Shown: positions 12,733 to 28,601, counted from the first letter of the stretch. The stretch: DNA of 32,000 nucleotides from Alphaproteobacteria bacterium (GCA_045605805.1 JAZUQR010000008.1:35932-67931), one strand, 5' to 3'. Notes: generated from the sequence alone by a model not told the origin. A program made the numbers and translations.

Positions 12733-13005
12733 ATGAATAAAACTGAATTTGTTGAAGCAGTTGCTAAAGAAGCTAAAGCCTCTAAAGCCGCCGCAAATGA
12801 ATTGGTAAACGCTGTTGTAGCTGTTGTTACAAAAGCATTGAAAAAAGGTGAATCAGTTCAAATCACTGGTTTCGGTACATTTGAAGTAGCAAAACGCGCC
12901 GCTCGTAAAGGTCGCAATCCTGCTACCGGTAAAGAAATCAAAATCCCGGCATCAAAAGCTCCTAAGTTCAAAGCCGGCGCAGTCTTGAAAAAAGCTGTAA
13001 AATAA
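12733..13005 (+). CDS. hup: HU/IHF-family DNA-binding protein
   Basis: 90 aa, MNKTEFVEAVA...GFGTFEV..R.AR.GRNP.TG..I.I....P.FK.G..LK, which matches the full-length HU signature. The ATG at 12733 follows TTAAGAAAGGAAAA, the same RBS cassette the phage genes use. Confidence 0.9.
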   Translation: MNKTEFVEAVAKEAKASKAAANELVNAVVAVVTKALKKGESVQITGFGTFEVAKRAARKGRNPATGKEIKIPASKAPKFKAGAVLKKAVK

Positions 13006-13025
13006 GCCAAATTTGTCTTAATATA

Positions 13026-13055
13026 CCTCACAGGTTCTATCCCGTGAGGTTTTTT
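13026..13055 (+). terminator. Rho-independent terminator after the HU gene
   Basis: Stem CCTCAC (13026-31) / GTGAGG (13044-49) followed by a T-run (13050-55). Confidence 0.7.
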
Positions 13056-13056
13056 G

Positions 13057-13085
13057 TTGCATTTTAATCTGCCATGGGTTATAAT
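13057..13085 (+). promoter_or_regulatory. Sigma70-type promoter for the DGR operon
   Basis: TTGCAT (13057-62), a 17-nt spacer, then a perfect TATAAT (13080-85). Predicted transcription start near 13092. Confidence 0.5.
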
Positions 13086-13091
13086 GACCGA

Positions 13092-13343
13092 GCTTGGTTA
13101 GTTATGCCCAATCAGGCTAGGATTCGATAAATCCGATTATCAGTATGGGCAGAAGGTATTTCTGTCGGCATCCGCCATGGATACGCCGAAAGATTGTGTT
13201 AGTTCATGGGTGGATGCCTGCCGAATAAGGTATCCACCCCAATAAGGCAGGACTATTTCTCATACTGATAATAGTTTATCGACATCCACCCGCCTCATCA
13301 CAGGTGGGTAAATTGTTGATATGGGGCGTATGAAGGGTGGATC
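13092..13343 (+). promoter_or_regulatory. Highly structured ~250-nt 5' leader (candidate riboswitch or attenuator) with SD-sequestering alternative helices
   Basis: Long-range stem 13136-13147 (attatcagtatg) with 13261-13272 (catactgataat). GGGTGGAT occurs at 13208-15 and at 13335-42, where it overlaps the SD of the first gene. ATCCACCC occurs at 13232-39 and 13284-91. GGCATCCGCC at 13167-76 also pairs with 13208-18. I could not match it to any known riboswitch class. Confidence 0.45.
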
Positions 13344-13784
13344 ATGGGCAAGATATGCTCGTTTTTTGGACACAGTCATTTATATGGACAATCGGACCGT
13401 ATTGCCCAACAATTAAGGCAAGTCATTATCAATTTAATCGGACAAGGTGTTGATACCTTTTACGTTGGCAATCATGGTGAGTTTGATATTTTTGCCAGCC
13501 GGGTAGCCTATGATCTGAAAAGTTTATATCCTAACATCCAAATCATTGTTGTTTTATGTTATCCAAATGAGTTGCAATACTTAAAATGTGCCTTCACGGA
13601 TTTTTTGATGCCTCCGGAAATAGAAGCGGCCCCCAAACGGGCTTGCATTGTAACTCGCAATCATTGGGTTGCTGATAATTCTGACTACATCGTCTGCTTT
13701 ATCAAATACAAAATGGGTGGAGCCTATGCGGCTATCGAATACGCCCAAAAGCACCATAAACAGATTATAGAGGTGAGAGCATGA
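13344..13784 (+). CDS. SLOG-family (DUF1273/YpsA-like) protein, probable DGR accessory gene
   Basis: 146 aa. FFGHS...G(Q)GVDTFYVGNHGEFDIFA...YPNIQIIVVL resembles the Rossmann-like YpsA/DUF1273 pattern. It is the first gene of the operon. Family assignment is from memory. Confidence 0.5.
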   Translation: MGKICSFFGHSHLYGQSDRIAQQLRQVIINLIGQGVDTFYVGNHGEFDIFASRVAYDLKSLYPNIQIIVVLCYPNELQYLKCAFTDFLMPPEIEAAPKRACIVTRNHWVADNSDYIVCFIKYKMGGAYAAIEYAQKHHKQIIEVRA

Positions 13785-13883
13785 ACCAAGCAGGCATACG
13801 TCACATTTGGGCTGAACGGTTGACTTCGCAAGGGAAGACGGATAAAATTGGCCCGGTAAAAACTCATAAAGAATGGTGTAAAA

Positions 13884-14477
13884 ATGCGTAAAGATCAAGT
13901 CAGTCGTAATCAAAGAATTCATATGCCCAGGAAGGTAGAAAACGTTTCGGGGCAATTAATGCTACCTGTGGATGTTGCTTCTGTAAAGCAAGCATTTGCA
14001 ACAGCTAATGACAAACGATTTAAATATGCTGATGCGCTGGATCAAGCAACCAAAGAAGATCCGGAATTGCATCAAATTTCAACAATTCCAAGCGATTCAA
14101 GCGAATTAATTGTTATAACGAAACTTAAAAAACTGGGGGCTTATATTCTAGCCGTGACGGTTAAATCGCCGGCCAAATTTAGACCTGTTTTTATCAATCG
14201 GATGCAAAATTACAGCTTGTCGGCTTTGGAAAATTTATTGAATGCTAATTTTATTCGGATGGATAGCCCCGAACATAAAGCCCAGCGAGAAAAGCATCAA
14301 ACGGATGCACTCATTCAGTTAAAAATGGTGGCATATGTTGCAATGCTGTCGGAAAATGCAAAGTGTATTTTGATGAGGCAGTATAAACAAATATCAATTC
14401 AGGTTGGTGAAATTATTAACCTGATTATGGCATGGAAAAAAAGTGATGATAAACAATGGCAAACAAAAAAGTTTTGA
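13884..14477 (+). CDS. avd: Avd-like accessory variability determinant (four-helix-bundle type) with an N-terminal extension
   Basis: The C-terminal ~120 aa are helical and basic, with the pattern SPAKFR...L..A......H.....A...L.....L.......QY.QI..QVGEI.NLIMAWKKS, like bAvd and 23S-IVS-type four-helix bundles. It ends 38 nt upstream of the TR, the canonical avd position. Alternative starts are at 13923 and 13959. Confidence 0.6.
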   Translation: MRKDQVSRNQRIHMPRKVENVSGQLMLPVDVASVKQAFATANDKRFKYADALDQATKEDPELHQISTIPSDSSELIVITKLKKLGAYILAVTVKSPAKFRPVFINRMQNYSLSALENLLNANFIRMDSPEHKAQREKHQTDALIQLKMVAYVAMLSENAKCILMRQYKQISIQVGEIINLIMAWKKSDDKQWQTKKF

Positions 14478-14515
14478 ATCCGAAAGGGTCAAAAGAGGGA
14501 AAGTTGATAATGCGT

Positions 14516-14635
14516 ATTGTGCCTCTTGGTCCGCGTCTTCAAATGAAAATGAAAACGTGCGTTGCGTCAACTATAAGGGCGATAAGAACTGGAATAACAC
14601 GAATAAACGTAAAATCTCGGCGCGCCCCGATTTGC
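14516..14635 (+). repeat. DGR template repeat (TR)
   Basis: 120 nt matching 16142-16261. It contains 37 adenines, including 8 AAY codons in the register of the target frame. It ends in the GC-rich element TCTCGGCGCGCCCC (14615-28). Confidence 0.95.
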
Positions 14636-14890
14636 TTTTAAGGAGAACAACAAAATGTGGTCGGCAAAGACACAGATCTCTGAAACAAGCCAGATATGTG
14701 GATTTTAGAAAAAATCCGCCCGTGCTTAAAGCAAAGGAAACTTTCTCTTTTCTAACCGCTGTCAGCTTAATGCTCAGTGCGGTGGAAGAAGTAAAAATGC
14801 AAAGTTTGCGTTTTATGGGGTATCACATATATTGACACGTCTTGTTTTAATATATTATCGGGTACCCCTTTTTTACAACAAAAGAGAACG

Positions 14891-15940
14891 ATGAAGATAG
14901 AAGAGATATTTACATTTGAAAACTTGGTTGCGGCCCACAAAGCATGTCGGCTGAGTAAGCAACATAAACGAGGAACAATCATGTTTGAAATTGAATTGGG
15001 GCGTAATGTCACCAATCTGGTCAAACAATTGACGGCTAGAACATATCGTTTAAGTCCTTACAGATCCTTTACCATTTATGATCCGAAGAAAAGATTAATT
15101 GAAGCGTTACCCTACAAAGACAGAGTGGTTTTAATGTGCTTTTGTCAGCATTCGGTAGCTCCCCGGCTAGAGAGACACCTGATTTATGACAATGCCGCTT
15201 CACGCAAAGAAAAAGGAACGCATTTTGCGGTAGAGAGATTGCATTCATTTATGCGAAAGCTGTACATCAAAAACAAAACAAATCGGATTTATTTTTTGAA
15301 ATGCGATATCAGGAAATATTTTCAAAGCATCAATCATGAGATTTTATTGGAACTGTTGGCCAAGACCGGTTTTTCGGCTGATGAGATGTGGTTTTTAAGG
15401 ATGATCATTGAATCACACGGTTCCATCGGGTTGCCTTTGGGTAATCAGACCAGCCAATGGTTTGCCTTGCTTTATTTGAACGGAATGGACAGGCTGATTA
15501 AAGAACGTCTGCGTATGTCCTGTTATGTGCGCTATATGGATGATTTTGTTATCCTAAGCGAAGATAAAGCCAAATTACAGCTGTGTAGAAAGCAAATTGA
15601 TGAATATGTCAAAGGATTAAAGCTGTCCTTAAATCAAAAGACACAAATCGGGCTGTTATCGGATGGTATTGATTTTTTGGGATTTAACCACAAATTATCG
15701 GCCACAGGTAAGATTATCAAATCTTTGCGTGGATCGGCCAAAAGCCGCCAAAGAAAATACCTGAAAACCATCCGTCATTACTATTTGAATGATGTCCTGG
15801 ATGATGAGTACCTAGACGTCCGTTTAGCCTCGTTTCGCGGGCATTTAAAGGGGACTAAGAACTGGATCCATATCAGCAACCGCTTGGCTTCCTTAAAACA
15901 CGAGAAACGCCGTACAAAAAAAATTGTTGCAGAACAATAA
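14891..15940 (+). CDS. DGR-type reverse transcriptase
   Basis: 349 aa. Has RT motifs including LPLGNQTSQ (the DGR-characteristic NQ/SQ motif) and the catalytic YMDD (VRYMDDFVIL). There is no maturase or endonuclease extension. The TR lies 255 nt upstream. Confidence 0.9.
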   Translation: MKIEEIFTFENLVAAHKACRLSKQHKRGTIMFEIELGRNVTNLVKQLTARTYRLSPYRSFTIYDPKKRLIEALPYKDRVVLMCFCQHSVAPRLERHLIYDNAASRKEKGTHFAVERLHSFMRKLYIKNKTNRIYFLKCDIRKYFQSINHEILLELLAKTGFSADEMWFLRMIIESHGSIGLPLGNQTSQWFALLYLNGMDRLIKERLRMSCYVRYMDDFVILSEDKAKLQLCRKQIDEYVKGLKLSLNQKTQIGLLSDGIDFLGFNHKLSATGKIIKSLRGSAKSRQRKYLKTIRHYYLNDVLDDEYLDVRLASFRGHLKGTKNWIHISNRLASLKHEKRRTKKIVAEQ

Positions 15941-15984
15941 ATTGTATGATATACTGGGAGTATAAGCTAAATTAGGAGGCTCAT

Positions 15985-17934
15985 ATGGACTTTACGTTTT
16001 TGAAGGAAGATCAGATATGGGGCGATGGTGCCCTAGATGTAATGAAGCGTTATGGCACGAAGGTTGCGCCAACGGATCTGACAGTCATATTGGGTGGTTA
16101 TATGACTGGTGGAGGTGATCGTACTTCTGAAGATGATCTAACTTGTGCCTCTTGGTCCGCGTCTTCAGATGGACATGGAGGCGTGCGTTGCGTCCGCTGT
16201 GAGGGCGATGAGCACTGGGGTGGCACGCATGGACGTGTGATCTCGGCGCGCCCCGCTTTGCCTCCATCGGAGGCATCTAAAATCAGCCCGAGCGAAGCGA
16301 GAGCTATCGCTGGAATCCGCGTAGCGGAATATGGGGAATACCCGCAAACGGTCGCCGATGAACGCACCAGCGAGAAATTAGAAAGATTACATGATTCAAG
16401 ATCTCTCCGTCCGACCGGAAAAAATTACACATTTGATTCAGTTGGTTTAACCGATTATGACACGTCTTTTAAGGCCACATCCTATCAGGAATATGAAATG
16501 GATGGCAAAAGGTATATCCGCGTTCCTGGACGGCCTGCTGACGACGATAGCAAACTATCTACTGGGGAACAGGTAGAGTCCGGAAAACCCTACTGGGTTG
16601 AGGTCCAACCGATAGAATGGCTGATGGATAGAAGCGGCACAATGGTCGCCAAAAAATGCTTATTCGCCGGTATTCAATTTGATACAAAGAGCTCATATGA
16701 CGGTGACTTCTCTAAAACGTCCATGAAACACTATTTGGACACTTATTTTGCCAAAGAAATGGAGCCAACCGGACGTGTGGCCGCAAGAACGGTATCAAGA
16801 GACTATGAAGAAGAGCCGGAAAGAAAAGAACCCGTTAAAAAGAAAGAACCGACAGCCAGACAGAAGAAATACGGGATCGAGGTATCTGATGAGCCTATGC
16901 CCGTCAAGGACCAAATAAACTTCTATATTCAAAACGGAATGAGCTTCATGCTCCATGGCCCGTCCGGTGTCGGTAAATCACAACGTGTGAAAGAAATTGA
17001 TCCGGATTTGACCTCAATTACGCTGTGTAACGGAATTTTGCCTGAAGATGTTATCGGTAAAACAATCTATCCAAACGGCGTGGGAGCCGATGGGGCCTCC
17101 GGTGGTGTTTGGGTGCCGCCTAAGTGGTACACGGATTTGTGCAGAAAATGCGAAACAGAACCGGACAAACAGCACGTCTTATTTATCGATGAAGTGACCA
17201 ATGCGCGTGAAACAACACAAAGTTTGATCTATCACGTAGCGTTGGAAAAATCAATTGCCCAGGGCGTTGGCAAACTGCCTAATAATGCTGTGGTCGTATT
17301 GGCCGGTAACAGCAAGGAAGAATCAGGAGCCGCTTATAACATGCCGGCCCCGTTGTTCAGACGTTTAAGCCATATTTACTTGGACTTGAATATTCAGGAT
17401 TGGTTGGAATGGGGCTCGGAACACAGCAAGAGCCATCCGGAAGATCCGGATCGCTTAAACATCCATCCATTAGTCGCCAGTTTTGTGGCAACCTACGGAC
17501 GGCAAGTGTTCTATTCCGAGTATGATGAAGAAAACCCCGGCAAGTTTGCACTTGACCCACGAAAATGGGAAAAAGTATCAGATAAAATCTACGCTAATAA
17601 GGGTATGATGCGCCGTGAGATTTTGGAAGCTGATATCGGGCCTGAGTTGGCGGCCAGTTTGTTGTCTTATGCTAAAAATCCGCCGCTATCCCTGGAAGAA
17701 GTGATTGAGGGCGAATATACCCGCGAGGATATTCCTACGGGACAGGATGCCCGTTTGGCGTTGGCGTTGAGTTTGCGTCATGCAACACCGAAACAAGTCG
17801 GGAAAGTACGTCAATTTGTTGAAACACAGTTAGGCGCAGAAAATCGTGCGATTTTTGACTCTGTTTGGGTGGGCAAGGATGATACACGCGCCATGCAGAT
17901 TGCCACTTTACATAACTTAAAGGGAGGAAGATAA
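15985..17934 (+). CDS. DGR target protein: N-terminal variable ligand-binding domain fused to a MoxR/AAA_5-like ATPase
   Basis: Strong RBS (AGGAGG). The VR occupies codons 53-92. A charged linker spans about aa 272-296. Walker A is GPSGVGKS (16957-16980), Walker B is VLFIDEV, sensor-1 is LAGN, followed by PLFRRL. The order and spacing of these motifs resemble MoxR/AAA_5 ATPases. Confidence 0.8.
   Translation: MDFTFLKEDQIWGDGALDVMKRYGTKVAPTDLTVILGGYMTGGGDRTSEDDLTCASWSASSDGHGGVRCVRCEGDEHWGGTHGRVISARPALPPSEASKISPSEARAIAGIRVAEYGEYPQTVADERTSEKLERLHDSRSLRPTGKNYTFDSVGLTDYDTSFKATSYQEYEMDGKRYIRVPGRPADDDSKLSTGEQVESGKPYWVEVQPIEWLMDRSGTMVAKKCLFAGIQFDTKSSYDGDFSKTSMKHYLDTYFAKEMEPTGRVAARTVSRDYEEEPERKEPVKKKEPTARQKKYGIEVSDEPMPVKDQINFYIQNGMSFMLHGPSGVGKSQRVKEIDPDLTSITLCNGILPEDVIGKTIYPNGVGADGASGGVWVPPKWYTDLCRKCETEPDKQHVLFIDEVTNARETTQSLIYHVALEKSIAQGVGKLPNNAVVVLAGNSKEESGAAYNMPAPLFRRLSHIYLDLNIQDWLEWGSEHSKSHPEDPDRLNIHPLVASFVATYGRQVFYSEYDEENPGKFALDPRKWEKVSDKIYANKGMMRREILEADIGPELAASLLSYAKNPPLSLEEVIEGEYTREDIPTGQDARLALALSLRHATPKQVGKVRQFVETQLGAENRAIFDSVWVGKDDTRAMQIATLHNLKGGR
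16142..16261 (+). repeat. DGR variable repeat (VR)
   Basis: Differs from the TR at 24 positions, all TR adenines (17 A->G, 6 A->C, 1 A->T). The other 83 positions are identical. It lies in frame inside the 649-aa target gene. Confidence 0.95.
16260..16274 (+). promoter_or_regulatory. Hairpin immediately 3' of the VR (candidate homing/target-recognition element)
   Basis: GCCTCC-ATC-GGAGGC, a perfect 6-bp stem with a 3-nt loop. It starts where TR/VR homology ends and is absent from the TR side. Confidence 0.6.
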
Positions 17935-17935
17935 A

Positions 17936-18400
17936 ATGTCATTAAAAGAAATACTCGAAAAAAGTCGGAAAAAACGCAAGAATGGCTTAGTCATTGGGCC
18001 TGATATAGGATGGCTTGGTCCGAAACCCGCCCGAACAAAAGCCGAAAAGATTAATCAAATCAAAACGGAATTTATTGATGATAGAGCTTTGTTGATTGTC
18101 GGAGCTAAAGCATCCGATTTTGCAGAATATCCGAAGATAGAGGCTGATATCTCAGTTCAACGTTTGATTCAATATATGGATACGTTTGAAAAAACGGAAG
18201 ATCATAAAGGTTTCTTGGTCATTGATGGGTTAGACAATATACCTGAATCTGAACAGGAAAAGTTTGTCCCCTTGTTAAAAGATCGGCAGATTTTATCCAG
18301 TAAGCTGCCAAATGAAGTTCAAATTTTGGTTCCTGTGAAAAAAATTGAAGACATTTCAAAAAGGATAAAATCTCTGATATTTCCTCTGAAGGTGGTATAA
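17936..18400 (+). CDS. Hypothetical protein, operon partner of the ATPase and VWA genes
   Basis: 154 aa. It starts 2 nt after the ATPase stop and ends in a TAATG overlap with the VWA gene. Apart from a Walker-B-like FLVIDGLD, I found no motif. Confidence 0.5.
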   Translation: MSLKEILEKSRKKRKNGLVIGPDIGWLGPKPARTKAEKINQIKTEFIDDRALLIVGAKASDFAEYPKIEADISVQRLIQYMDTFEKTEDHKGFLVIDGLDNIPESEQEKFVPLLKDRQILSSKLPNEVQILVPVKKIEDISKRIKSLIFPLKVV

Positions 18401-20247
18401 TGATCAAAGATGTTTTAAAACAACAAGAAGAAATTCAATATATCAAGGAACAGGTTTTAGCCAAGTTTCCCTTACTTGGTGTGACGATGATGCCTTTGTC
18501 GGTTGTTCCTGATGATAGAATTGGGACAGCGGCCACGGATGGACATAAAATTATCTATTCTCCAAAGTTTTTTAACACCTTATCGGACGAACAAAAACAA
18601 TTTGTCTTTGCGCATGAAGTGATGCATGTCGCTTTTAACCATATTTTGCGCAGTAAGGGTCGTAATCAAAGATTGTGGAATATCGCAACCGATTCTGTTA
18701 TCAACCAAATCTTGAAAAATGAAAAATTGCCATTAGCGGAAGGTGGCGTTGATATTGCAGAAGCTGTCAATCATTCGGCCGAGGAAATGTACGAAAAACT
18801 TTTGAAAAAGAAAGAACAGCGCGATCAGGAAAAACAGCAAAATCAAGAGCAAGATCAACAGCAACAACAATCACAATCCGGTGGGACGGACCAGCCTCAG
18901 GATCAGGATGCACAAAATCAGCCTGAACAGGAACAACCTCAGGATCAAGACGGACAAAATCAATCCGGACAAGACCAGCCTCAGGATCAAGACGGGCAAA
19001 AGGGACAAGAACAATCCGATCAACAATCAGACGGTTCAGAAAATCAAGATGAACAAAACAAAAATTCATCAGAAGGCTCGGAAGGATCCGAACAACAGAA
19101 AGATCAATCTCAAGATGGTGATTCAAACTCTGAACAAAACAGTTCTTCCGGTCAGGGAGACGAAAATCAATCTGATTCAAATTCCGAACAATCAAGCGAC
19201 AATCAACAAGGATCCTCTAAACCTCAAAAAGGTGGTCAACGTTCGCAATCCGGTTCTTCCTCTCAATCAGAAGACACCGACTGGGATGACAGCAATATCG
19301 ATTGGGACAATGAAGATGAACAAGTAGGCCACGATACACATGATATTTGGAAAGAAGCAGTTGAGCAAGCAGAACGTGAAGAACAACGAAAACAGGAAGC
19401 ATCCAAAAAGAAAAGTTTATGGGATAAACTAAAAGAGAACATGGGGCAAAAAGAAGTTAAAGAGGATCAGCAAGGCGAACCTCAAGAAAAAGAAGCTCCT
19501 GTACCGCAAGATGAAAACATGGATGCGTATGAAAAAGGCTTCTTGGCAGAAAATCAAGAAAAACGTCATGAGATGGCCGAACAGGTGCGCGAACAATTAA
19601 ACAGGATAAAAGGAAGCCTCCGTCAATCAAATGATCATACCACAGTCGGGGATGTTGGGGAAACTCAAACGCCGGTGGTTGATTGGAAAAAAATGCTTAA
19701 AAAATCTTTTGATGAAGAGCGTGATCGTTGGTCCTATCGTCGTTCCGGTTCTGAAAACGACTATATGGCTCGGGTAGAAGAATTGGAAGATGAAGGCCGT
19801 CCGGATACTGAGGTTATGTTGGATGTCAGCGGTTCTGTAAATATCCGCTTGTTACGTGAATTTTTAAGACAACTTAAACCGTTACTTAAATCCTCTAAAT
19901 TAAAGGTCGGTTGCTTTGATGAGTTTGTTTATGATTTTAAAGAAATAAAGACAAAAGAAGATATTGATCATTTTCAAATTACGGCAACATCTCAATGGAC
20001 TGAAAACTGGGATGCGGCTGTCCGGGCATTTTCTAAGAAAAAAGAAGTGAATAAAATTATTTTTACAGACGGATATCCATGCCCAGGAACAATGCCTAAA
20101 GAAGATTTAAAGGGTAAGAATGTTATTTGGATAGTTTATGGAAATAAAGATTTTAATCCATGCTGTGGTAAAGTCATCCAGGTTTCTGAACGACAACTTC
20201 AGTCGTATATTCAGACGGCCGCTCCACTTTCTAGAGGTGGAAGATAA
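18400..20247 (+). CDS. Putative HExxH metallopeptidase / VWA-domain protein (DUF2201-like) with a long disordered linker
   Basis: N-terminal HEVMHVAFNH motif (18613-). About 170 aa of Q/D/E/S/G-rich low complexity. The C-terminal domain has a MIDAS-like DVSGS (19822-19836). AAA_5/MoxR ATPases are commonly partnered with VWA proteins. Confidence 0.7.
   Translation: MIKDVLKQQEEIQYIKEQVLAKFPLLGVTMMPLSVVPDDRIGTAATDGHKIIYSPKFFNTLSDEQKQFVFAHEVMHVAFNHILRSKGRNQRLWNIATDSVINQILKNEKLPLAEGGVDIAEAVNHSAEEMYEKLLKKKEQRDQEKQQNQEQDQQQQQSQSGGTDQPQDQDAQNQPEQEQPQDQDGQNQSGQDQPQDQDGQKGQEQSDQQSDGSENQDEQNKNSSEGSEGSEQQKDQSQDGDSNSEQNSSSGQGDENQSDSNSEQSSDNQQGSSKPQKGGQRSQSGSSSQSEDTDWDDSNIDWDNEDEQVGHDTHDIWKEAVEQAEREEQRKQEASKKKSLWDKLKENMGQKEVKEDQQGEPQEKEAPVPQDENMDAYEKGFLAENQEKRHEMAEQVREQLNRIKGSLRQSNDHTTVGDVGETQTPVVDWKKMLKKSFDEERDRWSYRRSGSENDYMARVEELEDEGRPDTEVMLDVSGSVNIRLLREFLRQLKPLLKSSKLKVGCFDEFVYDFKEIKTKEDIDHFQITATSQWTENWDAAVRAFSKKKEVNKIIFTDGYPCPGTMPKEDLKGKNVIWIVYGNKDFNPCCGKVIQVSERQLQSYIQTAAPLSRGGR
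18817..19330 (+). repeat. Low-complexity Gln/Asp/Glu/Ser-rich coding tract with degenerate QPQDQDGQNQ repeats
   Basis: Repeated cagcctcaggatca(a/g)ga(c/t)g(g/c)acaaaa units. The tract creates spurious ORFs at 18881-19327 (+) and 18767-19195 (-). Confidence 0.8.
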
Positions 20248-20256
20248 GGTACAACG

Positions 20257-20277: not shown

Positions 20278-20289
20278 GAAAGTGTTAAA

Positions 20290-22872
20290 TTAATATAAAT
20301 TAGCCTCAAAAATTTGATAAAGGTCAAATTCTATACCGTCAACGCCTCTGATGAGGTCTATTTCATCTTCGGCGGCGACATCAATTCGGGCCTGATCTAA
20401 AAACAAGCCTTCTTCTTTTCGTTTAAGCTCTTTTTCAGCGACATTCAGCTGTTTTTGAATTCTTAATTCCGTGAGCCGGTCTGAAGCGGAGGATATTGTC
20501 TCACGAATTTTTTTAACCTCTTGCCTTGCTTCTGAAATGTTTTGCTCTAGGACAGATTTTTGGCGGCTGGCTTTTATTTTAATTAAATCAACATCCGTAT
20601 CAAACTTTTTGGTATAATCATTTACATAACGTTCCTTAAGGTCGCGCTGGATGCGTGTATCTAACAAATCTCGCGATGAACCGCCAGTCGTTTTTAGCCA
20701 ATACGGATTCCTCTTTTCTTCAGCTATAAATTCACTAACCGGTTGATTGATAATTTTTTGGCATTCCTCATCAGTCATGAGCCGTCCATCAGGTGTCGTA
20801 CCAACCAAAATGTCATACTCTGATAAATACTGCCGGCGGCGATTACGTAAGACGATGTTATAGAACTTTATATTGCATTTTTCTGTTGGCTCAACGGTTT
20901 TAATGTCCGCTTTGTCAGAGCATGATATTTCTTGTAAAATACCACGAACAAGCACGGATGTTAAAGTGATGCGCCCTGCGACCGGCTTAAAATCTTTACT
21001 CATTCCATAAGTCCTGCGACCGGTGTATGGCACATTTCTTGTGCCGGTGTAATAGTAAAACATGTGCGGCAATTCTTCATCGTCCGGTAAAGTCAGCGTT
21101 TGATTGAAGTCATCGATCACATATTCCGGATGCTTTGTCGCAAAATAAAACTTCACAACTTCCCATAAATCTTTATTCAAGAACTCCGCTTGTTCCTCTA
21201 TGTATTTCGGCGAAACGGACACTTTCTCGGCAATATCTTTGGTAAAAGTGGTAAAGAGAGAACTTTCAGCCGCTGAAACAATGCGCTCATTCGGTTCGCG
21301 GTTTACTTCCAAGTTTGTTTCCATATCTGCGCGTATATCACTAAGCGTGCGGCGTTTTTGCAAAACATCTTCCAGTTTAACATCAAAATTACCGACAATA
21401 TCGTCCGACATACCAAAAATGCCTTCAAATTGCAGGGTACGCTTGTTTATCAGCTCCAAAATACGGACATCCGAGATATTTTCTTTGCTTAAAAGATTGA
21501 TAACTAAAACATCGGATTGCTGGCCTTGTCGGTGGCAACGACAGATACGCTGTTCCATTTCCACGGCGTTATAAAGTAAATCATAGTTAACCACAACTGG
21601 ACAATATTCAATATCCAAGCCTTTGGCCATAGCATCACTACAAATTAAAATTTGCAAATCTTTTTCTGCCCGAAAACGTGGCAGAGCATCATTTTCTGTA
21701 TGCTTGATGACATTATATCCGGCGGTTTTAAGCAAATTTGCCAAAACTGGCACGGTGGCAAGATTATCCACGAACACAATCGCTTTTTGTGTTTCTTTAC
21801 GCAATTTTAAGTGTGCAAATGTCGTTTTAATAGCTTTTAGAAATTCTTCCATTTTGGCGGTTTGCGTAATTTTTGCCGCCATATCGCGCATTGATTCCAA
21901 AATAACACGTTCATCGCCTTGTGTTCGCTCAATAGGTGCTTCCAACATTGTGGCAAATGCTTGTGGTGATGAGGCCAAAATGTGGTAAAACATCAAAGTC
22001 AGTTGATAATTATCCATTTGCGGATAAGCCTGCTTTTCAGCTAAATTTAAGTATTTTTCGGTTAAATCATAAATTTTCTTTTCATCATCTTTTGGTACGT
22101 AGTTCAAAACAATCGGTAAGCGACGTGTAAAGTTTACATACTGGCTCGCTTGGCTTTTAAGGGTACGAAAAGCGAATTGTGATACCCAATTTGATAGTTC
22201 TGGATAGTTTTCGGGCTTTCTGAAATACCGGCGATAAAAACTGTCAGGATCCGGCAGAACGCTTTCATCAATAAAATGTATCAATCCGTAAATATCCATG
22301 ATACTCATTGTGATCGGCGTTGGCGTTAAAAGCAGTTTGAAAGCATCGCCGACAGCACCCTTAATGGTTGCAACTGATTTATTGTCCGGCTTAAAAAGAA
22401 AATCAGCCTCATCAAACACGGCCAAATCCCAACGAATGCTTTTGACTTTTTCTGCCTCACGGATAACATCATCGTATGTGACAAGGCAAATACCTTTACT
22501 ATCGGCAGTATATTCGGCCCATTTGATAACCGGCAAGGTGAACTCTTCATCAAGTTTTTGTTGCCATTGTGCCATAAGGTTTTGGGGTAAAACAACCAAT
22601 ATATGTTCTTTTCCCTCGTACCAACGTTGAACTACTACAAGCAAAGCCTCATAAGTTTTACCGAGTGAGCCTTCATCACATAAAATGCAACCTTTAATCA
22701 ACCTAGATCGCAGGGCAAAACGGGCCGCGGCTATTTGATAAGGTAATACTTTAATTTTTGAAGAAGCATAAACCGCCAGTAAATTATCGTCATCGCGAAA
22801 ACTGGCCAATCGTCTGGCTTCCACCATAGCGGCAAATTCGGATACAAAACGATACGGCTTAGTCTCTTCCAT
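20290..22872 (-). CDS. SNF2-family helicase-like ATPase with a C-terminal coiled-coil extension
   Basis: Motif I is LCDEGSLGKT and motif II is VFDEADFL. The helicase-C block is ...DAMAKGLDIEYCPVVVNYDLLYNAVEMEQRICRCHRQGQ. The start lies 3 nt after the res stop. Confidence 0.8.
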   Translation of the reverse strand: MEETKPYRFVSEFAAMVEARRLASFRDDDNLLAVYASSKIKVLPYQIAAARFALRSRLIKGCILCDEGSLGKTYEALLVVVQRWYEGKEHILVVLPQNLMAQWQQKLDEEFTLPVIKWAEYTADSKGICLVTYDDVIREAEKVKSIRWDLAVFDEADFLFKPDNKSVATIKGAVGDAFKLLLTPTPITMSIMDIYGLIHFIDESVLPDPDSFYRRYFRKPENYPELSNWVSQFAFRTLKSQASQYVNFTRRLPIVLNYVPKDDEKKIYDLTEKYLNLAEKQAYPQMDNYQLTLMFYHILASSPQAFATMLEAPIERTQGDERVILESMRDMAAKITQTAKMEEFLKAIKTTFAHLKLRKETQKAIVFVDNLATVPVLANLLKTAGYNVIKHTENDALPRFRAEKDLQILICSDAMAKGLDIEYCPVVVNYDLLYNAVEMEQRICRCHRQGQQSDVLVINLLSKENISDVRILELINKRTLQFEGIFGMSDDIVGNFDVKLEDVLQKRRTLSDIRADMETNLEVNREPNERIVSAAESSLFTTFTKDIAEKVSVSPKYIEEQAEFLNKDLWEVVKFYFATKHPEYVIDDFNQTLTLPDDEELPHMFYYYTGTRNVPYTGRRTYGMSKDFKPVAGRITLTSVLVRGILQEISCSDKADIKTVEPTEKCNIKFYNIVLRNRRRQYLSEYDILVGTTPDGRLMTDEECQKIINQPVSEFIAEEKRNPYWLKTTGGSSRDLLDTRIQRDLKERYVNDYTKKFDTDVDLIKIKASRQKSVLEQNISEARQEVKKIRETISSASDRLTELRIQKQLNVAEKELKRKEEGLFLDQARIDVAAEDEIDLIRGVDGIEFDLYQIFEANLY

Positions 22873-22875
22873 AAT

Positions 22876-25800
22876 TTACACCGTTTTCTTAAATTCCTGC
22901 CAATTTCTGACCGGCTGTTCGGAGTAGATAACATTATCAAGAGCTTTGAAGTGCTGTGCGCCGCAATGAATCTTTTGTTGTTCTTCCGGTCGCAGGCCAT
23001 AGAACGAATCAGTTCCTTTGGTTTCAAGCACGAAATAAAGTTTCTGTTCGCCATTTTTCTCTAAATATACGGCCCAGTCCGGATTATAGGTTCCAATAGG
23101 TGTATCAATCTTAAACCGGCTTGGAATTTTAAAGAACATTTTAACGTCAGGATCCTCATCCAAAGCCACGGCAAACGGCTTTTCAACCGTGCTACTGTCA
23201 TAAATAACATAGTCATAAACGCTGTTTTTAACCGCGACAGCATTACGATCGAGGTTAGCAATCAATTCTTCACTCGAGAAAATCTCTTGCACGGCATATT
23301 CTTCGCCGGCCAATTTAATATACTTAATTCCATCAATGGCCAATGCATGGCGATTGCGCTGGATGATCTCCAAAACCTTTTCGTAAAAGTCTTGTGGGTT
23401 CTTCAAAAAGTCTCCGGCCCGGCTGCTTTCTTGAATGATTTTATTCACGGTCGAACGTTTCAGCAATGTTTTGGTAGAGATTAAACGCAAAATATCCGGC
23501 AGAACATCATAGCTCTTTTCCAGGTTTTGGGTAAACATCGCACCGGCTTGGGCGGTTACGCCTGACTTTTGAATATCAACCGAGGCTGTCTGACTGAGTA
23601 AACGGGCCGAAGCAATCTCCGGCATCTTACGAATATCCTTGATACTGTCGGCGATCAGTTTATCTAAATCAAACTGGACCCGATAAGTGGTCTTTTGCTT
23701 AATTTTATTCCACAACTCCATAAATTCCGGTGATAATAGCGCACGTTTATTGAGTTTTACCGTTACATCCTTGGAAGCATCGCGGATGTTGAGCTTATTA
23801 TCAGCCTTGTTCATGGACTGCAAAATTGCACGTTGCGCGGCTTTTGACCAACGCTCACTTAAATTGAGTGTACCGGCCGCAAGCTGTGCCTTCATGGTGT
23901 CTTTAATCTTGTTCTTGCTGTCAATAACCTTTTTATCTTTCAGCTCATCCATAATCGCGGCCGCTTCCTCATACGAGAAGGTCTTTTTCTCAACAACAGT
24001 TTCTTTATATGTTGTATTAGCAAGCGCGGCAACCGACACCGGCTTTGAAGTTTTGATCATATCTTGAACATGTGTTTTTACAGGTTCAGGCATGGGGATA
24101 TTTTCGATTTTAATTTCTTCCGGCTTAACTTCCGGTTTAATGTAGCCACCATCATCAATTAAGCCATATTTTTGTAAATCTTCAACAATAGCGGTGGCCT
24201 CGCTTTCGCTGACTCTACGTTCAACTTCTACTTCTTCATCGTAAGAATAGCCGACAAGCATATCCAACTCGAAAACGCCAAATTTAACACCGGTTTCATC
24301 TTCAATTTCTTTCTGTAATTTATCGGCAAACTCGGCAAAACTTTCGTTGGCGATAACGTGCAAAACATTGATGTTCTTATCCTCAATCCGTTCTCCGTCC
24401 TGATTAACGCAAAGTCTTAAGCCACGACCGATTTTTTGACGGCAGGTAAACAGCGATTTTTGCTCGATCAGCGTGCAAACTTGGAAGACATTCGGATTAT
24501 CCCAACCTTCTTTTAAGGCAGAGTGCGAGAAAATAAAGCGGAGCGGACATTCAAACGACAACAGCCACTCTTTATCTTTCATGATGGTATTGTAGGTGTC
24601 GTCATCAGCCTGCGTATCGCCTTTGGTATCCTTATATTTACCTTTTTTATCTTGGGAGAAGTAACCGTTGTGTGCTTTGTTTACGTCTGTATCGAACTTG
24701 GTTTTTAGCTCAGCGTAACGTGGTTTATTGATCAGTTCGTTATAGCATTCTTCGAACATTTTGGCATAAATACCTTTGCCGCCATCCTCAGTGCGGTATT
24801 TTTTAACCTCATCAATAAAGAACAGGGACAACACCTTAATTCCCATATCAAAATAGCGTAATTCCTTATCTAAATGGGTTTTAATGGTCTGATAAATTTG
24901 CGCACGTTTCAAAACTTTTTCATCAACGCTACCGATGGCTTTACCCAGGGCAACATATTCCGAGTTTGCAAATTCCACACCCTCAAGGCCTGATGTACAA
25001 TCAATCCCTGAAACAACATAGCCTTCATAAATTTTGCGATGGCCGGATTTGATAAACAGATCATCGTCCGGTTTAACCGTTATAACTTTACGCGTAATAT
25101 GAGCGTTGTCGTCTTCCACATCAATTTCCAGTTTGGCCGAAAAGCCGTTGGCGTTTGAAACGTTCTTTAAGGCGATATAGGGTTTGTTTGAATCATTGAT
25201 AACTGAATTTGAAATAACGCAAATCTGTTTTACTAATCCCAGTTGATACGCATCAACTGGTGTTAAACGATAGACAAGATTCTGCTTTTCGCGGTGGGTA
25301 GCGGAATAACGCAACACGCACAGCGGATTAAGCATCGCGATGGCTTCCTTTGCCTTTGGCGTATTATCAACACTTTGCGGTTCGTCAATAATCACAACCG
25401 GATTTGTGTCCTGAATATAGCGCATAGCGGTTTCGCCGTTCAGTTTATCTTGCTCTTGATTGATAATGTTTTCGGCCTTTTTGAAAGCATCGATGTTGAT
25501 GATCATGATTTCAATGTTGCTGGAAGTTGCAAAGGCTCGCACATCAGAGAGCTTGGCCGAATTATAAATAAAGTAGCGGTACGGCACACCGTCATATTGA
25601 TTTTTGAAATACTCTTCCGTAACCTGAAACGACTTGTTTACACCTTCGCGAATTGCTACACTCGGTACAACAATGATGAACTTTGTAAAACCGTAGCGGT
25701 GGTTAAGCTCCAAAATTGTTTTTGTATAAACGAAAGTTTTGCCGGTTCCGGTTTCCATTTCAATTGAAAGCGGCACCGCCTTTATGCCGTCAATGTTGGT

Positions 25801-26034
25801 TTGCGGCAGAGAATGAGCCTTTTGGATTGCATGAAGATTGTTGTTTATTGTCTCTTCATCCAACAGCAACTTGTTACCGAACCCAAATTCATTTTGCAGG
25901 AAAGAAGCCTGCGCGGAGTTATCGGCGATTGAAAAAGTCATGTTGGCTTTTTCTTGGCCCTTGAATAACTCAACCGCCGCATTCGTGGCATCAGTTTGAA
26001 ATTCTTGATTCTTAAACTTTAGTTTCATGCTCAT
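22876..26034 (-). CDS. res: Type III restriction enzyme, Res subunit
   Basis: 1052 aa. METGTGKT (Walker A), IIDEPQ (DEAH-like), helicase-C motifs, and a C-terminal PD-(D/E)xK nuclease signature (YNPDW...VLETKG). Confidence 0.85.
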   Translation of the reverse strand: MSMKLKFKNQEFQTDATNAAVELFKGQEKANMTFSIADNSAQASFLQNEFGFGNKLLLDEETINNNLHAIQKAHSLPQTNIDGIKAVPLSIEMETGTGKTFVYTKTILELNHRYGFTKFIIVVPSVAIREGVNKSFQVTEEYFKNQYDGVPYRYFIYNSAKLSDVRAFATSSNIEIMIINIDAFKKAENIINQEQDKLNGETAMRYIQDTNPVVIIDEPQSVDNTPKAKEAIAMLNPLCVLRYSATHREKQNLVYRLTPVDAYQLGLVKQICVISNSVINDSNKPYIALKNVSNANGFSAKLEIDVEDDNAHITRKVITVKPDDDLFIKSGHRKIYEGYVVSGIDCTSGLEGVEFANSEYVALGKAIGSVDEKVLKRAQIYQTIKTHLDKELRYFDMGIKVLSLFFIDEVKKYRTEDGGKGIYAKMFEECYNELINKPRYAELKTKFDTDVNKAHNGYFSQDKKGKYKDTKGDTQADDDTYNTIMKDKEWLLSFECPLRFIFSHSALKEGWDNPNVFQVCTLIEQKSLFTCRQKIGRGLRLCVNQDGERIEDKNINVLHVIANESFAEFADKLQKEIEDETGVKFGVFELDMLVGYSYDEEVEVERRVSESEATAIVEDLQKYGLIDDGGYIKPEVKPEEIKIENIPMPEPVKTHVQDMIKTSKPVSVAALANTTYKETVVEKKTFSYEEAAAIMDELKDKKVIDSKNKIKDTMKAQLAAGTLNLSERWSKAAQRAILQSMNKADNKLNIRDASKDVTVKLNKRALLSPEFMELWNKIKQKTTYRVQFDLDKLIADSIKDIRKMPEIASARLLSQTASVDIQKSGVTAQAGAMFTQNLEKSYDVLPDILRLISTKTLLKRSTVNKIIQESSRAGDFLKNPQDFYEKVLEIIQRNRHALAIDGIKYIKLAGEEYAVQEIFSSEELIANLDRNAVAVKNSVYDYVIYDSSTVEKPFAVALDEDPDVKMFFKIPSRFKIDTPIGTYNPDWAVYLEKNGEQKLYFVLETKGTDSFYGLRPEEQQKIHCGAQHFKALDNVIYSEQPVRNWQEFKKTV

Positions 26035-26726
26035 TTACCTATTTTATAAATTACATATTTAATTTCAGGATTCGAAAACTGCTCCTTAAAGAAAGATTCC
26101 ATTTTCTTGTCATTATTCACAACTTCTTTAGGCAATTGATTAAAATTTAATATTGTTTTATCCATCATGCCTACATCATTTATCAGAATACGATGACGCT
26201 TGTCTTCGTTCTTATTCCAGTAGAGGATCGCATACCTTATGGAGCCGGAAATAACCTCATTATCAAACGTAACGCTGTGCGTTGTAATGGTTTCCAACTT
26301 TTTCTTTTTTTTGATTTTACCAGTAAACGGGATAAAAATCGTCTTTTCGGGAGTTTGAACTCTAAAATATATGTCTTTATGCATAGGGATTTCAGGCTCA
26401 TAGGAGTATCTTTTCCCCATAATGTTATATGCATGAAAAGGTTCCAACAAAAATGGCTCATCAAAAGTTTTTAGTGTCATTAGGTATTTATTGTTGAATA
26501 CGACAGAGATGGCCGTAATCGTTTTCGGAGAGAGCGTTTTATTGAATATCGTGCAATGTAAACCACTCCCTTCAAAAGAATTATGATTTTCTCCGAAAGA
26601 TGTGATTTTAAGATTTTTTGAAAAGTGGTAAAGCCAAAAGCCATAAGCAGTTAAAACAAATATCCCCAAATTACCAAGGATGGATGCTACTTTCTCAACA
26701 GTTTCCAAATTCAAAAAATCACACAT
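26031..26726 (-). CDS. Hypothetical membrane-anchored protein inserted between mod and res
   Basis: 231 aa with an N-terminal TM segment (LGNLGIFVLTAYGFWLY). It has its own RBS (GAGGTGGA) and an ATGA overlap with the res start. It looks A+T-rich by eye. No recognisable motif. Confidence 0.55.
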   Translation of the reverse strand: MCDFLNLETVEKVASILGNLGIFVLTAYGFWLYHFSKNLKITSFGENHNSFEGSGLHCTIFNKTLSPKTITAISVVFNNKYLMTLKTFDEPFLLEPFHAYNIMGKRYSYEPEIPMHKDIYFRVQTPEKTIFIPFTGKIKKKKKLETITTHSVTFDNEVISGSIRYAILYWNKNEDKRHRILINDVGMMDKTILNFNQLPKEVVNNDKKMESFFKEQFSNPEIKYVIYKIGK

Positions 26727-26735
26727 CGTCCACCT

Positions 26736-28601
26736 CTACAGCAACATAATTTCCACGCCACTGTCTTTGCTTATGTAATAAGCGTTGGATAGGGCCACAT
26801 CATCTTTGAACGCTTCTTCAGCCGCGACAATTTTAGCCGGCGATAATTCGCACATCGCGGTTACGTCTTCCGGTGTGATACCGCCATTTGAACCGTCCAG
26901 GCAAACAAGAACCAAGCCTTCTTCGCCAATGGAATAAACTTTGCGGCCGTTCAAATTATTTTCTGTAACCTTATAAGTCTCCGGAATACCAAGCTTCAGC
27001 ATAACTTCATAAACCACATCTAATTCGGAGCGGTCAATTTTAAGACTCTTTATCATTGTATCGAAGCGTTCTTTCAAAATCTCTGTCTCGGAGCTTTCCA
27101 GCGGTGTATCATCCCACTTAACCAAATTTGATGTATCCAGTTTCAAAACCTTAAAGCCAACATCCACATCGGCGTTTTGCTCTTTGATTTTTGCACCGGC
27201 GCGGCGGATACGCTCTTTACCGATTTCACAAATGTTTTTATATCCGGCTTTGAAAGCTTCTGACTTTTCGTCCGTCAGTTCAGGTAACTGCACCATAATA
27301 AATTGACGTTTGCCTCCATCTTCTGCGTTGAGTTGCATAACCGCATGGGCGGTGGTGGCCGAACCCGAGAAGAAGTCAAGAACAATGTCGCCATCAGACA
27401 CTTTTGACATTAAAATTAGGTCATTTACGAGATTGACTGGTTTTGCATAATCAAAATATGATTTTTCAATTTGAAATAATTTTTTAATTTCTTCAGTACC
27501 CTTTGCATTTATGTATTCGTCTTTGAATATTGATATAAATTGTTTTTCTCGATTTGAATCATCGCGGATTTTTTCGTAAACAATGTAAGTACCATCGGAG
27601 CGTTTTTCAAAGATTACATCTCCCTCGCTGACTTTCTTATGCATCTTTTCTTTACCTAAACGCCAACGACCCTCTGTCCCATCATTTCGAATAGGATATA
27701 CATCTTCGCCATTCGGACCTTTTATAGGAAAATACATAGATGGAGAATCTTCTCGTCTTGAACCTGCGCCCCATTTGTTTAATTCGCGACCTTTCGCATA
27801 TGCACCTTTTTCATCTTGAAGATTTAGCGTCCTACCTTCTACCTCTACACCACCAAATTCAACATCATTTATATTCTTAGAGTAGATGAGAACATAATCG
27901 TGCGTAACTCTGATGTATTTAGATTGACTGCCACCTTTAATGGCTTCTCGTGTAATTTGCGCAATAAAGTTTTCTTCTCCGAATACCTCATTACAAATTT
28001 TCTTTAGGTTATCCACCTCGTTATCATCAATGCTGATGAAAATAACGCCATCGTCACGGAGCAAGTTGGCGGCCAAACGTAACCGCGGATACATCATGTT
28101 CAGCCAGTTGGTGTGATAACGTCCCATTGTTTCAGGATTAGACTTGGTGGTTTGGCTGGTAATTTCTTTATATTTTGCAAGCGGATCTTTGAAGTCATCT
28201 TCATAAACAAAGTCATTACCGGTATTATACGGCGGATCAATGTAAATCATCTTAACTTTGCGATAATAAGCCGTTTGCAACAGCTTTAATACTTCTAAAT
28301 TGTCGCCCTCAATATACAGATTATTGGTATTTTCAAAGTCCACACTTTCTTCAACACACGGGCGGAGTGTACCTGTAGAACGTTTTCCGGCGATACGCAG
28401 GCACTCTGATTTGCCTTTCCATTCAAACTTGTACTTTTCAAAGTCATTGTCGATATATTCGCCACATAGTGACAACAGTTTATCAATATCCAGCTTGCCC
28501 TCAACAAAACATTGCGGGAAGACGGCTTTTAAGCGTTCCTTATCAGTTTCTGCCACATCCAAACTCTTGCCGTCTAATTTCTTAATATTAAGTTCTTGCA
28601 T
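26736..28601 (-). CDS. mod: Type III DNA methyltransferase, Mod subunit (N6-adenine, beta class)
   Basis: Motif IV is IYIDPPYNTGNDFVY. AdoMet motif I is DFFSGSATT. The motif order (IV before I) and the 621-aa length are typical of Type III Mod proteins. Confidence 0.85.
   Translation of the reverse strand: MQELNIKKLDGKSLDVAETDKERLKAVFPQCFVEGKLDIDKLLSLCGEYIDNDFEKYKFEWKGKSECLRIAGKRSTGTLRPCVEESVDFENTNNLYIEGDNLEVLKLLQTAYYRKVKMIYIDPPYNTGNDFVYEDDFKDPLAKYKEITSQTTKSNPETMGRYHTNWLNMMYPRLRLAANLLRDDGVIFISIDDNEVDNLKKICNEVFGEENFIAQITREAIKGGSQSKYIRVTHDYVLIYSKNINDVEFGGVEVEGRTLNLQDEKGAYAKGRELNKWGAGSRREDSPSMYFPIKGPNGEDVYPIRNDGTEGRWRLGKEKMHKKVSEGDVIFEKRSDGTYIVYEKIRDDSNREKQFISIFKDEYINAKGTEEIKKLFQIEKSYFDYAKPVNLVNDLILMSKVSDGDIVLDFFSGSATTAHAVMQLNAEDGGKRQFIMVQLPELTDEKSEAFKAGYKNICEIGKERIRRAGAKIKEQNADVDVGFKVLKLDTSNLVKWDDTPLESSETEILKERFDTMIKSLKIDRSELDVVYEVMLKLGIPETYKVTENNLNGRKVYSIGEEGLVLVCLDGSNGGITPEDVTAMCELSPAKIVAAEEAFKDDVALSNAYYISKDSGVEIMLL

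Follow-up and report, generated by a model that had tools for sequence, protein, structure and literature searches.

The window analysed here is a stretch of 32,000 nucleotides from an Alphaproteobacteria bacterium (GCA_045605805.1 JAZUQR010000008.1:35932-67931). It belongs to a siphovirus-like prophage, recognizable by its tape-measure gene, an endolysin gene, and genes for a J-like tail protein and an HU-like protein; the hosts are uncultured Alphaproteobacteria from rumen and gut metagenome-assembled genomes (MAGs). Just downstream of the tail and lysis genes lies the target operon of a diversity-generating retroelement (DGR), which apparently diversifies the 5' part of a gene for a MoxR-class AAA+ ATPase. 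The order is the one given in the first-pass annotation of this DNA: a SLOG-like gene, avd, the template repeat (TR), the reverse transcriptase (RT) gene, and the target gene with its variable repeat (VR). The target is followed by genes for a small basic protein and a von Willebrand factor A (vWA)-like protein. The features of the DGR and the target operon are as follows (IMH, initiation of mutagenic homing; aa, amino acids; pI, isoelectric point; pLDDT, predicted local distance difference test; AF2, AlphaFold2).

13884..14477, + strand: Avd, 197 aa, pI 9.7 (phrog_3206 'Avd protein of DGR', E 7e-11)
14517..14635, + strand: TR, with mutable adenines at 14542-14614 and a GC-rich IMH*-like end at 14619-14629
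14636..14890, + strand: TR-RT spacer, assigned by position only
14891..15940, + strand: DGR RT, 349 aa (phrog_1423, E 2.5e-93; Pfam RVT_1, E 1e-19)
15985..17934, + strand: target gene, 649 aa, coding for an N-terminal variable module, a disordered linker, and a MoxR-class AAA+ ATPase
15985..16770, + strand: N-module (aa 1-262), a circularly permuted DUF6273-type (C-lectin-like) domain
16143..16261, + strand: VR, codons 53-92 of the target, with 18 diversified codons within 62-86
16245-16255, + strand: IMH-like GC-rich element, inside the coding sequence
16259-16275, + strand: hairpin TGCCTCC-ATC-GGAGGCA with a 7-bp stem and a 3-nt loop, inside the coding sequence
16771..16842, + strand: disordered, charged linker (aa 263-286), pLDDT <50 in both AF2 models
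16882..17931, + strand: MoxR-class AAA+ ATPase with C-terminal helical domain (Foldseek, phrog_1297, and motifs)
17936..18400, + strand: small basic protein, 154 aa, pI 9.2, with a conserved position in the cassettes
18400..20247, + strand: vWA-like protein with an N-terminal zincin-type metallopeptidase domain (HEVMH at aa 72)

The DGR is recognizable by a direct repeat of 119 nt, the copies of which (14517-14635 and 16143-16261) are offset by 1626 nt. All 23 mismatches between them fall on adenines of the upstream copy, which contains 36 adenines (A to G 17, A to C 5, A to T 1), and every non-adenine position is identical. The upstream copy is therefore the TR. Its 24-nt 5' anchor and its 16-nt GC-rich 3' anchor occur twice each in the 32-kb window, where shuffled sequences would yield 0.00 and 0.01 matches, respectively; thus, the anchor search revealed a single VR and no second one in the window. 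This VR covers codons 53-92 of the 649-codon open reading frame (ORF) with the ATPase downstream of it, exactly as the first-pass annotation had proposed. The codons that correspond to mutable TR adenines number 18 and are all located between codons 62 and 86. Among 26 close homologues and the window protein, aa 62-86 have a mean column entropy of 2.30 bits, compared with 0.15 bits in the ATPase. A loop at aa 39-45 (YMTGGGD, 16099-16119) and aa 55 also reach 2.2-2.9 bits among close homologues, without TR adenines at these sites. These residues may adjoin the surface formed by the VR, or the TRs of other lineages may differ. The RT carries both the [ILV]GxxxSQ motif and the YxDD catalytic box by which DGR-clade RTs are recognized (LGNQTSQ at aa 183 and YMDD at aa 215), and an Avd accessory gene adjoins the TR. 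Besides its PHROG match, Avd is similar to Pfam bAvd over aa 75-187 (E 1e-5) and to NCBIfam DivGenRetAVD (E 5e-5), both under the curated cut-offs. Its N-terminal extension of approximately 70 aa is conserved in one distantly related cassette (L008) and partly in another (L018; related loci are labelled L001 to L021, and P0057, P0074, P0124, and P0130 are homologous proteins).

Putative cis elements of this DGR lie within the target gene. TR and VR share a GC-rich element with a single fixed A/C difference. This difference, at codon 91, is found in 10 of 10 aligned 119-nt VRs, and the indel-bearing VR of L004 has C at this site as well; it thus looks like an IMH/IMH* difference and not like a product of mutagenesis. 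The hairpin is present at the VR only. Seven close loci retain it, L012 and L016 have an altered version, and conservation does not extend to the distant cassettes L008, L018, and L020; it may be regarded as a candidate cis element with a putative function in the DGR. The stretch from 16245 to 16275, which comprises the IMH-like element and the hairpin, encodes the residues ..ARPALPPSEA.. of the target. The spacer between TR and RT gene (14636..14890) is presumably part of the TR-containing RNA, by analogy with the DGR of phage BPP-1. A 130-aa ORF with a GTG start (14443-14835) runs across the TR in the reading frame of the VR (..CASWSASSNENENVRCVNYKGDKNW..). This ORF almost certainly exists only because the TR copies coding sequence, and is no gene.

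Several lines of evidence indicate that the DGR is apparently active, as judged from sequence comparison of related prophages. Over 170 nt, the window, L001, and L004 have exactly the same TR (100% identity). The flanks compared in L001, L002, and L005 are 96-97% identical, but the VRs of these near-identical prophages are just 77-82% identical and differ almost exclusively at sites of TR adenines. The same adenine bias recurs in 10 related VRs. Alternatively, the DGR could be a relic, with old TR/VR differences in an element that no longer works. Losses of the DGR in L003, L006, L007, and L009 and the broken targets of some related loci would be in line with this scenario. However, near-identical prophages that share an identical TR would hardly have VRs that differ at the TR adenines if the element were dead. 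Furthermore, RT, Avd, and TR are intact, including the YMDD box and the SQ motif, and TR and VR match perfectly outside adenines, whereas long inactivity would erode this match. A relic is therefore very unlikely.

The same arrangement exists far beyond the near-identical prophages. The order of avd, TR, RT, target, small ORF, and DUF2201 (vWA-like) gene is repeated in L008, L018, and L020. In all three, the 5' end of the target is served by a separate TR/VR pair with adenine bias. The N-module is 48% identical in L008 and 37% identical in L018, a phage contig from IMG/VR. As this order is found in three distant loci, the layout has been inherited and did not arise by local rearrangement.

The target gene starts with an ATG 7 nt downstream of an AGGAGG Shine-Dalgarno sequence. 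One could suspect that the N-terminal part and the ATPase are in fact two genes, so that a short protein would carry the VR at its C-terminus. The existence of stand-alone N-module genes (290-350 aa; in L010, L012, L013, L015, and L016) might point in this direction, as might database gene calls that begin just after the VR, such as P0057. Against this interpretation, the ORF of 649 codons is uninterrupted and its Shine-Dalgarno sequence is strong. Moreover, among the 611 homologues of the target, 78 of the best-scoring 120 carry an N-terminal RP[AV]L-type motif within the first 200 residues, and most of these 78 are single ORFs of approximately 630-690 aa. Even the stand-alone genes contain the VR at codons ~55-95 of ~300, hence still N-terminally, and the P0057 gene call results from a frameshift or stop inside the VR. 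The division into two genes was rejected on the basis of this conservation and has a negligible probability. Accordingly, the first-pass annotation was right in placing the VR close to the 5' end of a long multidomain ORF, which encodes the N-module, the linker, and the ATPase.

Structure prediction and profile comparisons offer an explanation for this unusual position. In the AF2 model, aa 1-262 form one compact unit (pLDDT 91.4; predicted TM-score 0.84; the full-length model has a pLDDT of 87.4). The variable codons are placed in loops around two short strands, 67-70 and 76-79, which form a beta-hairpin. This predicted placement fits the VR reported for DUF6273, a C-type-lectin-like domain whose VR is a surface beta-hairpin flanked by loops (PMC10743442; bioRxiv 2024.10.15.618418). 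The Pfam model of DUF6273 (PF19789) did not match aa 1-110, aa 1-272, or a hand-permuted sequence at E values up to 10, and no other Pfam family matched this region either; a Foldseek search with the model of aa 1-300 against PDB and BFVD returned nothing significant, and neither did a search of the N-module profile against PDB sequences. The homology of N-module and DUF6273 is thus demonstrated only at the level of the family, by profile alignment and by DUF6273 matches in relatives. One weak relative, an ORF in L019, is a canonical DUF6273 target (PF19789, E 6.8e-26), which ends in ..GARPAIKIG* and is followed by avd. In hhalign comparisons, aa 114-262 of the N-module align with residues 108-242 of this ORF (probability 96%, E 2e-9). 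The VR-bearing part, aa 30-92, is in register with residues 308-371 and shares the blocks TDL/TDY, W-S-AS/WWLRS, and ARPAL/ARPAI, but this similarity is weak (P ~0.02-0.03). The clinching evidence for a circular permutation comes from two further relatives. P0124 consists of tandem modules (7-256 and 280-543), and its Pfam DUF6273 match (214-375, above the gathering score) spans the junction, running from the end of module 1 into the beginning of module 2. The last third of the DUF6273 model (positions 114-171) is matched by residues 57-117 of P0130. At the level of sequence, the N-module is thereby shown to be a DUF6273 unit in circularly permuted form. This permutation accounts for the N-terminal VR: within the half that bears it, the VR keeps its C-terminal place, as it has in canonical targets, and this half now comes first. 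The earlier statement on the VR position consequently applies to the protein, where the VR is N-terminal, but not to the fold, in which it is not out of place.

How unusual is this layout among known DGRs? In the prototype from BPP-1 (mtd-avd-TR-brt), the target is located upstream, and a tail-fibre protein has its extreme C-terminus encoded by the VR. In the prophage, the target is downstream of the RT gene, the VR occupies codons 53-92 of a gene for a cytoplasmic ATPase, the cis elements are situated in coding sequence, and TR lysine codons can be mutated to stops. Both DGRs have Avd, a TR, an RT with the SQ motif, adenine-specific mutagenesis, a GC-rich IMH-like element at the 3' end of the VR, and a variable scaffold related to C-type lectins. 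That the locus departs from the classic order, as the first-pass annotation had emphasized, thus holds. The novelty of the arrangement was overstated, however, because a comparison with catalogued architectures showed that avd-TR-RT-target cassettes and 5'-proximal VRs are already on record. A survey of 48 cassette architectures found that Architecture B (68%) has a core of avd, TR, and RT with varying target positions, and it lists N-terminal and internal VRs, in which the IMH necessarily is in coding sequence (Wu, 2018, PMC5758913). Seventeen targets of the former Ig1/Ig2 classes have an N-terminal VR (Roux, 2021, supplement). The tentaclins (Baykov, 2023, PMC10743442) and FP_Toutatis (Egorov and Atkinson, 2024, bioRxiv 2024.10.15.618418) possess an N-terminal DUF6273/C-lec domain with a 5' VR, and the target gene of FP_Toutatis is stated to lie downstream of the RT gene (bioRxiv 2024.10.15.618418). 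The 5' VR in an N-terminal domain of this type and the origin from gut phages or prophages are shared with our locus. In tentaclins, however, an unpermuted DUF6273 domain is followed by Ig-like domains and the protein is thought to be displayed on the virion, whereas the target described here has a permuted module without a Pfam match, followed by a MoxR AAA+ ATPase. Neither Ig nor Fn3 domains were found in the target, which sets it apart from tentaclins. The layout is therefore rare but described; the novelty lies in the type of protein that is diversified. In the literature searched there was no DGR target that is itself a MoxR ATPase, no permuted DUF6273 module, and no such phage cassette.

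The C-terminal part of the target contains a Walker A motif (GPSGVGKS, aa 325) and a Walker B motif (VLFIDE, aa 398). The best Foldseek matches in PDB are NorQ (9qh4, E 4.5e-10, TMt 0.61) and CbbQ (6l1q, E 6e-10), and phrog_1297 is matched with E 1.8e-37. The Pfam families AAA_5 and AAA_3 remained below threshold, a profile search against PDB sequences retrieved 2r44 and CbbQ weakly, and phmmer searches of PDB sequences with the ATPase and the vWA protein gave noise only. With its Walker motifs, NorQ and CbbQ as nearest structures, and a vWA-like partner encoded two genes downstream, this part of the target is a MoxR-class AAA+ ATPase. NorQ-NorD and CbbQ-CbbO are likewise pairs of an AAA+ ATPase and a vWA partner, and the ATPases are the best structural matches for aa 300-560. 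They differ from the target in that the identity is just 13-16%, an N-terminal recognition module is missing, and the substrates (NO reductase and Rubisco) are fixed. The vWA-like protein of the operon is assigned by matches to Pfam DUF2201_N (E 2.6e-29), DUF2201 (VWA-like; E 5e-7), and phrog_1314 (E 1e-49). Its linker (18767-19330) is long, acidic, rich in Gln, Ser, and Asp, and of low complexity, with a 42-nt tandem repeat at 18888-18971. In every related locus tblastn covered only the ends of the protein, so the linker is not conserved. The 154-aa protein encoded between ATPase and vWA protein keeps its position in L001, L003-L009, L018, and L020. It displays a NACHT-like, Walker-B-like motif (FLVIDGLDNIPE) and no Walker A motif, and has weak matches to NPHP3_N (E 0.003) and Avs1b (E 5.5e-4). 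NCBIfam searches with the target, the small protein, and the vWA protein gave no meaningful matches. None of these three proteins has a signal peptide or membrane segment, and the maximum Kyte-Doolittle (KD19) hydropathy of the target is 0.86. The diversified ATPase is thus a soluble cytoplasmic protein.

The N-module itself is widespread. Its profile retrieved 2744 cluster representatives at E <= 1e-3 and 894 at E <= 1e-30, most of which stand alone and have 280-400 aa; others consist of tandem modules or are fusions with further domains. A megablast search with 13000-20300 and a tblastn search with the N-module found no match among the INPHARED phages, and a scan of IMG/VR with the N-module alignment yielded two loci only. 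The N-terminal position of the ATPase is occupied by ankyrin repeats in P0074 (548 aa), the ATPase of which is 84% identical; the joint is at approximately aa 272, in the linker region. Ankyrin repeats also occur in 4 of 49 larger proteins that contain N-modules. This replacement supports, by sequence, the view that the N-terminal slot holds an exchangeable recognition module. Alphaproteobacterial MAGs contain stand-alone N-module genes of 290-350 aa with lysine-rich, disordered tails in housekeeping neighbourhoods:

L012:4311-5327, stand-alone N-module
L016:7980-9041, stand-alone N-module
L013:7992-8963, stand-alone N-module
L015:7782-9080, stand-alone N-module
L010:6756-7637, stand-alone N-module

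These proteins are 70-91% identical to aa 1-270 of the target, and the genes in L012 and L016 are syntenic, located between genes read as suf and yajC-secDF. Most mismatches between their VRs and the TR of the window are at adenines (16/21, 16/21, 17/21, 20/22, and 19/28), so they are diversified by a TR of this family; in L003, the VR of a full-length homologue shows 20 of 24 mismatches at adenines. The stand-alone modules are possible trans targets of prophage DGRs.

A VR near the 5' end exposes the whole ATPase to the errors of retrohoming. The TR does not consist of AAY codons alone but includes four lysine codons (two AAG and two AAA), each of which can be converted to a stop codon by adenine mutagenesis. 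The TRs of L008 (6528-6641) and L018 (5620-5702) have an in-frame TAA at the equivalent of W78, and thus an unmutated copy would truncate the target; the VR of L008 reads TGA there. The VR of L004 (8159-8279) contains a TAG at the K73 codon and a 2-nt insertion, the VR of L020 (2667-2777) a 1-nt deletion at a TR adenine, and the VR of L021 (~300-420) a stop beside a run of N. Several database gene calls start just after the VR, like that of P0057. These broken VRs are either null alleles made by the DGR or assembly artefacts of mixed VR populations. The expectation that nonsense or frameshift outcomes would remove the entire ATPase is borne out by the stop-prone lysine codons and the broken VRs in L004, L008, L020, and L021.

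Directly downstream, the target operon is adjoined by a defence island, which does not belong to the DGR:

20290..28601, - strand: defence island (PADLOC)

The island encodes a DrmD-like SNF2 helicase (1.3e-76), a type III restriction enzyme (1e-296), and a type III methyltransferase (1.6e-193), and a 231-aa ORF without assigned function is located between the genes for the restriction enzyme and the methyltransferase.

The structural and genetic description of the locus can be held with high confidence. It suggests the following scenario. An adenine-mutated cDNA would replace codons 62-86 of the gene directly downstream of the RT. The ATPase, presumably co-transcribed with the genes for the small basic protein and the vWA-zincin protein, would assemble into a ring like NorQ and CbbQ. 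Such a ring would display several hypervariable ligand-binding modules with approximately 1e18 possible sequences, which may recognize an intracellular ligand that changes; a protein from a competing phage or from a defence system of the host is the most likely candidate. Such recognition might then be coupled to ATP-driven remodelling and to the vWA-metallopeptidase partner, in the service of either defence or counter-defence. The system would thus be related to the MoxR-vWA conflict systems linked to DGRs, in a compact version carried by a phage. Given the 5'-proximal VR and the lysine codons of the TR, retrohoming would also produce null alleles, which would switch the ATPase off in part of the population. 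That hypervariable intracellular recognition drives a MoxR-vWA-peptidase conflict machine has about an even chance of being the function. As a whole, the interpretation of the target as a hypervariable intracellular recognition module fused to such a machine appears slightly more probable than improbable.

DGRs have been linked to vWA-MoxR (VMAP) ternary conflict systems (Kaur, 2020, PMC7159879; Dore, 2024, PMC10907252). Like the locus described here, these combine a DGR with a MoxR ATPase and a vWA protein, have cytoplasmic targets, and are proposed to recognize invaders. They differ in that a C-terminal VR of the FGE-type C-lectin kind resides on a vWA or STAND protein, the MoxR protein is separate, and the systems are chromosomal and found in multicellular bacteria. 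In the prophage, by contrast, the MoxR protein itself bears an N-terminal, permuted DUF6273 module with the VR, and the vWA protein has a zincin peptidase domain. A more specific form of the conflict scenario is that the system serves the lysogen. The variable module would sense proteins of superinfecting phages, and the MoxR ring would relay binding to the vWA-metallopeptidase as effector, which would thereby be released or activated, resulting in superinfection exclusion or abortive infection in the manner of a compact VMAP-ternary analogue. The precedent of DGR-diversified sensors with MoxR and vWA partners in cellular conflict systems (PMC7159879; PMC10907252), the adjacent type III restriction-modification genes and DrmD-like helicase, and the existence of chromosomal copies are consistent with this possibility. 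In addition, the position of the DGR in L006 (4163-7860) is held by two ORFs of 599 aa and 328 aa, with 31 codons of the RT 3' end left. As read by eye, these ORFs are of defence type and may code for an OLD-like ATPase and a DNA methyltransferase, respectively. However, Pfam, NCBIfam, and PADLOC searches detected neither a VMAP protein nor a recognized effector-associated domain, so the locus is no VMAP ternary system in the described sense. The described systems also carry the VR at the C-terminus of the vWA protein instead of the N-terminus of the ATPase, and PADLOC matches are missing. A lysogen-serving sensor is thus possible but tentative.

A different role can be derived from jumbo phages of group 2.2, where a MoxR ATPase is paired with a vWA protein that has an N-terminal metallopeptidase, and a function in virion assembly was proposed (Iyer, 2021, PMC7824862). 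This pair, represented by PHROGs 1297 and 1314, has the same two-gene core and gives strong matches, but neither a DGR nor a variable N-terminal module was reported for it. Transferred to the prophage, the MoxR-vWA-metallopeptidase system would be a chaperone that folds, assembles, or processes structural proteins, and the variable module would tune substrate binding. A precedent is said to have been shown for the Acidianus two-tailed virus tail, and the position of the operon just downstream of tail and lysis genes would agree with such a function. Yet a chaperone would act on conserved proteins of the phage itself, and there is no obvious need for ~1e18 variants. Homologous operons also occur in non-prophage chromosomal contexts, as in L007 and L009, where the target, small, and vWA genes adjoin an ORF read as dnaX. 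Furthermore, the stand-alone N-modules are host genes in housekeeping neighbourhoods, and the neighbours of the operon in the window are defence genes and not morphogenesis genes. An assembly chaperone is consequently rather improbable.

The proposal of virion assembly for phage MoxR-vWA-peptidase pairs nevertheless weighs against a conflict machine, and so do three other observations. The target, small, and vWA proteins match no defence model in PADLOC. No DGR exists within 8 kb of the full-length homologues L003, L007, L009, L014, and L017, and diversification is therefore optional for the family; L003, L007, and L009 have the genes for the small and vWA proteins as well. Finally, the broken VRs may partly be assembly artefacts, as in L021 with Ns inside its VR.

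If the variable module of the conflict machine selects its substrates, the 'anticipatory' recognition enabled by DGRs would take place inside the cell and on the phage side of a conflict. Phage-side recognition would complement the DGR-linked MoxR-vWA and STAND sensors proposed for multicellular bacteria. Studied phage DGRs almost all diversify virion proteins that contact the cell exterior, whereas the diversified protein in this prophage defence island lacks an export signal and is an ATP-driven motor with a vWA/protease partner. The interest of the locus lies in a DGR-diversified, permuted C-lectin-like module on a cytoplasmic MoxR ATPase, with cognate stand-alone targets in the host. In a still wider interpretation, a temperate phage would use the DGR to make a repertoire of intracellular binders fused to an AAA+ motor with a partner protease, and could in this way direct a programmable and hypervariable attack at cytoplasmic proteins, be they from the host or from rival phages. 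The same TR would rewrite the stand-alone modules of the host in trans, and the 5' VR would cause stochastic ON/OFF switching. This combination is doubtful. Independently of function, the circular permutation of DUF6273 is a clear structural reason for a 5'-proximal VR, and the locus defines a large unannotated family of ~2700 cluster representatives, which current Pfam models miss. It also is a natural case of DGR cis elements that coexist with coding constraints and of tolerated nonsense outcomes.

The gene at the upstream border of the DGR deserves separate mention:

13344..13784, + strand: SLOG/YpsA-like ORF, 146 aa (Pfam YpsA, E 6e-6, 26.8 bits versus a cut-off of 27.7)

The first-pass annotation had counted this gene among the accessory genes of the cassette. 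However, L008 and L018 lack it upstream of avd, and none was called in the short stretch (280 nt) that precedes avd in L020. A role as DGR accessory was rejected because the gene is absent from the distant cassettes. As it is retained only in the near-identical prophages L001, L002, L004, and L005, it is excluded from the DGR proper and probably is a bystander that merely neighbours it.

Among the chromosomal homologues, the copy in L009 (8001-9655) is split into ORFs of 123 and 340 aa, and the equivalent of aa 105-187 is deleted. Because of the split and the deletion, this copy probably is a pseudogene.

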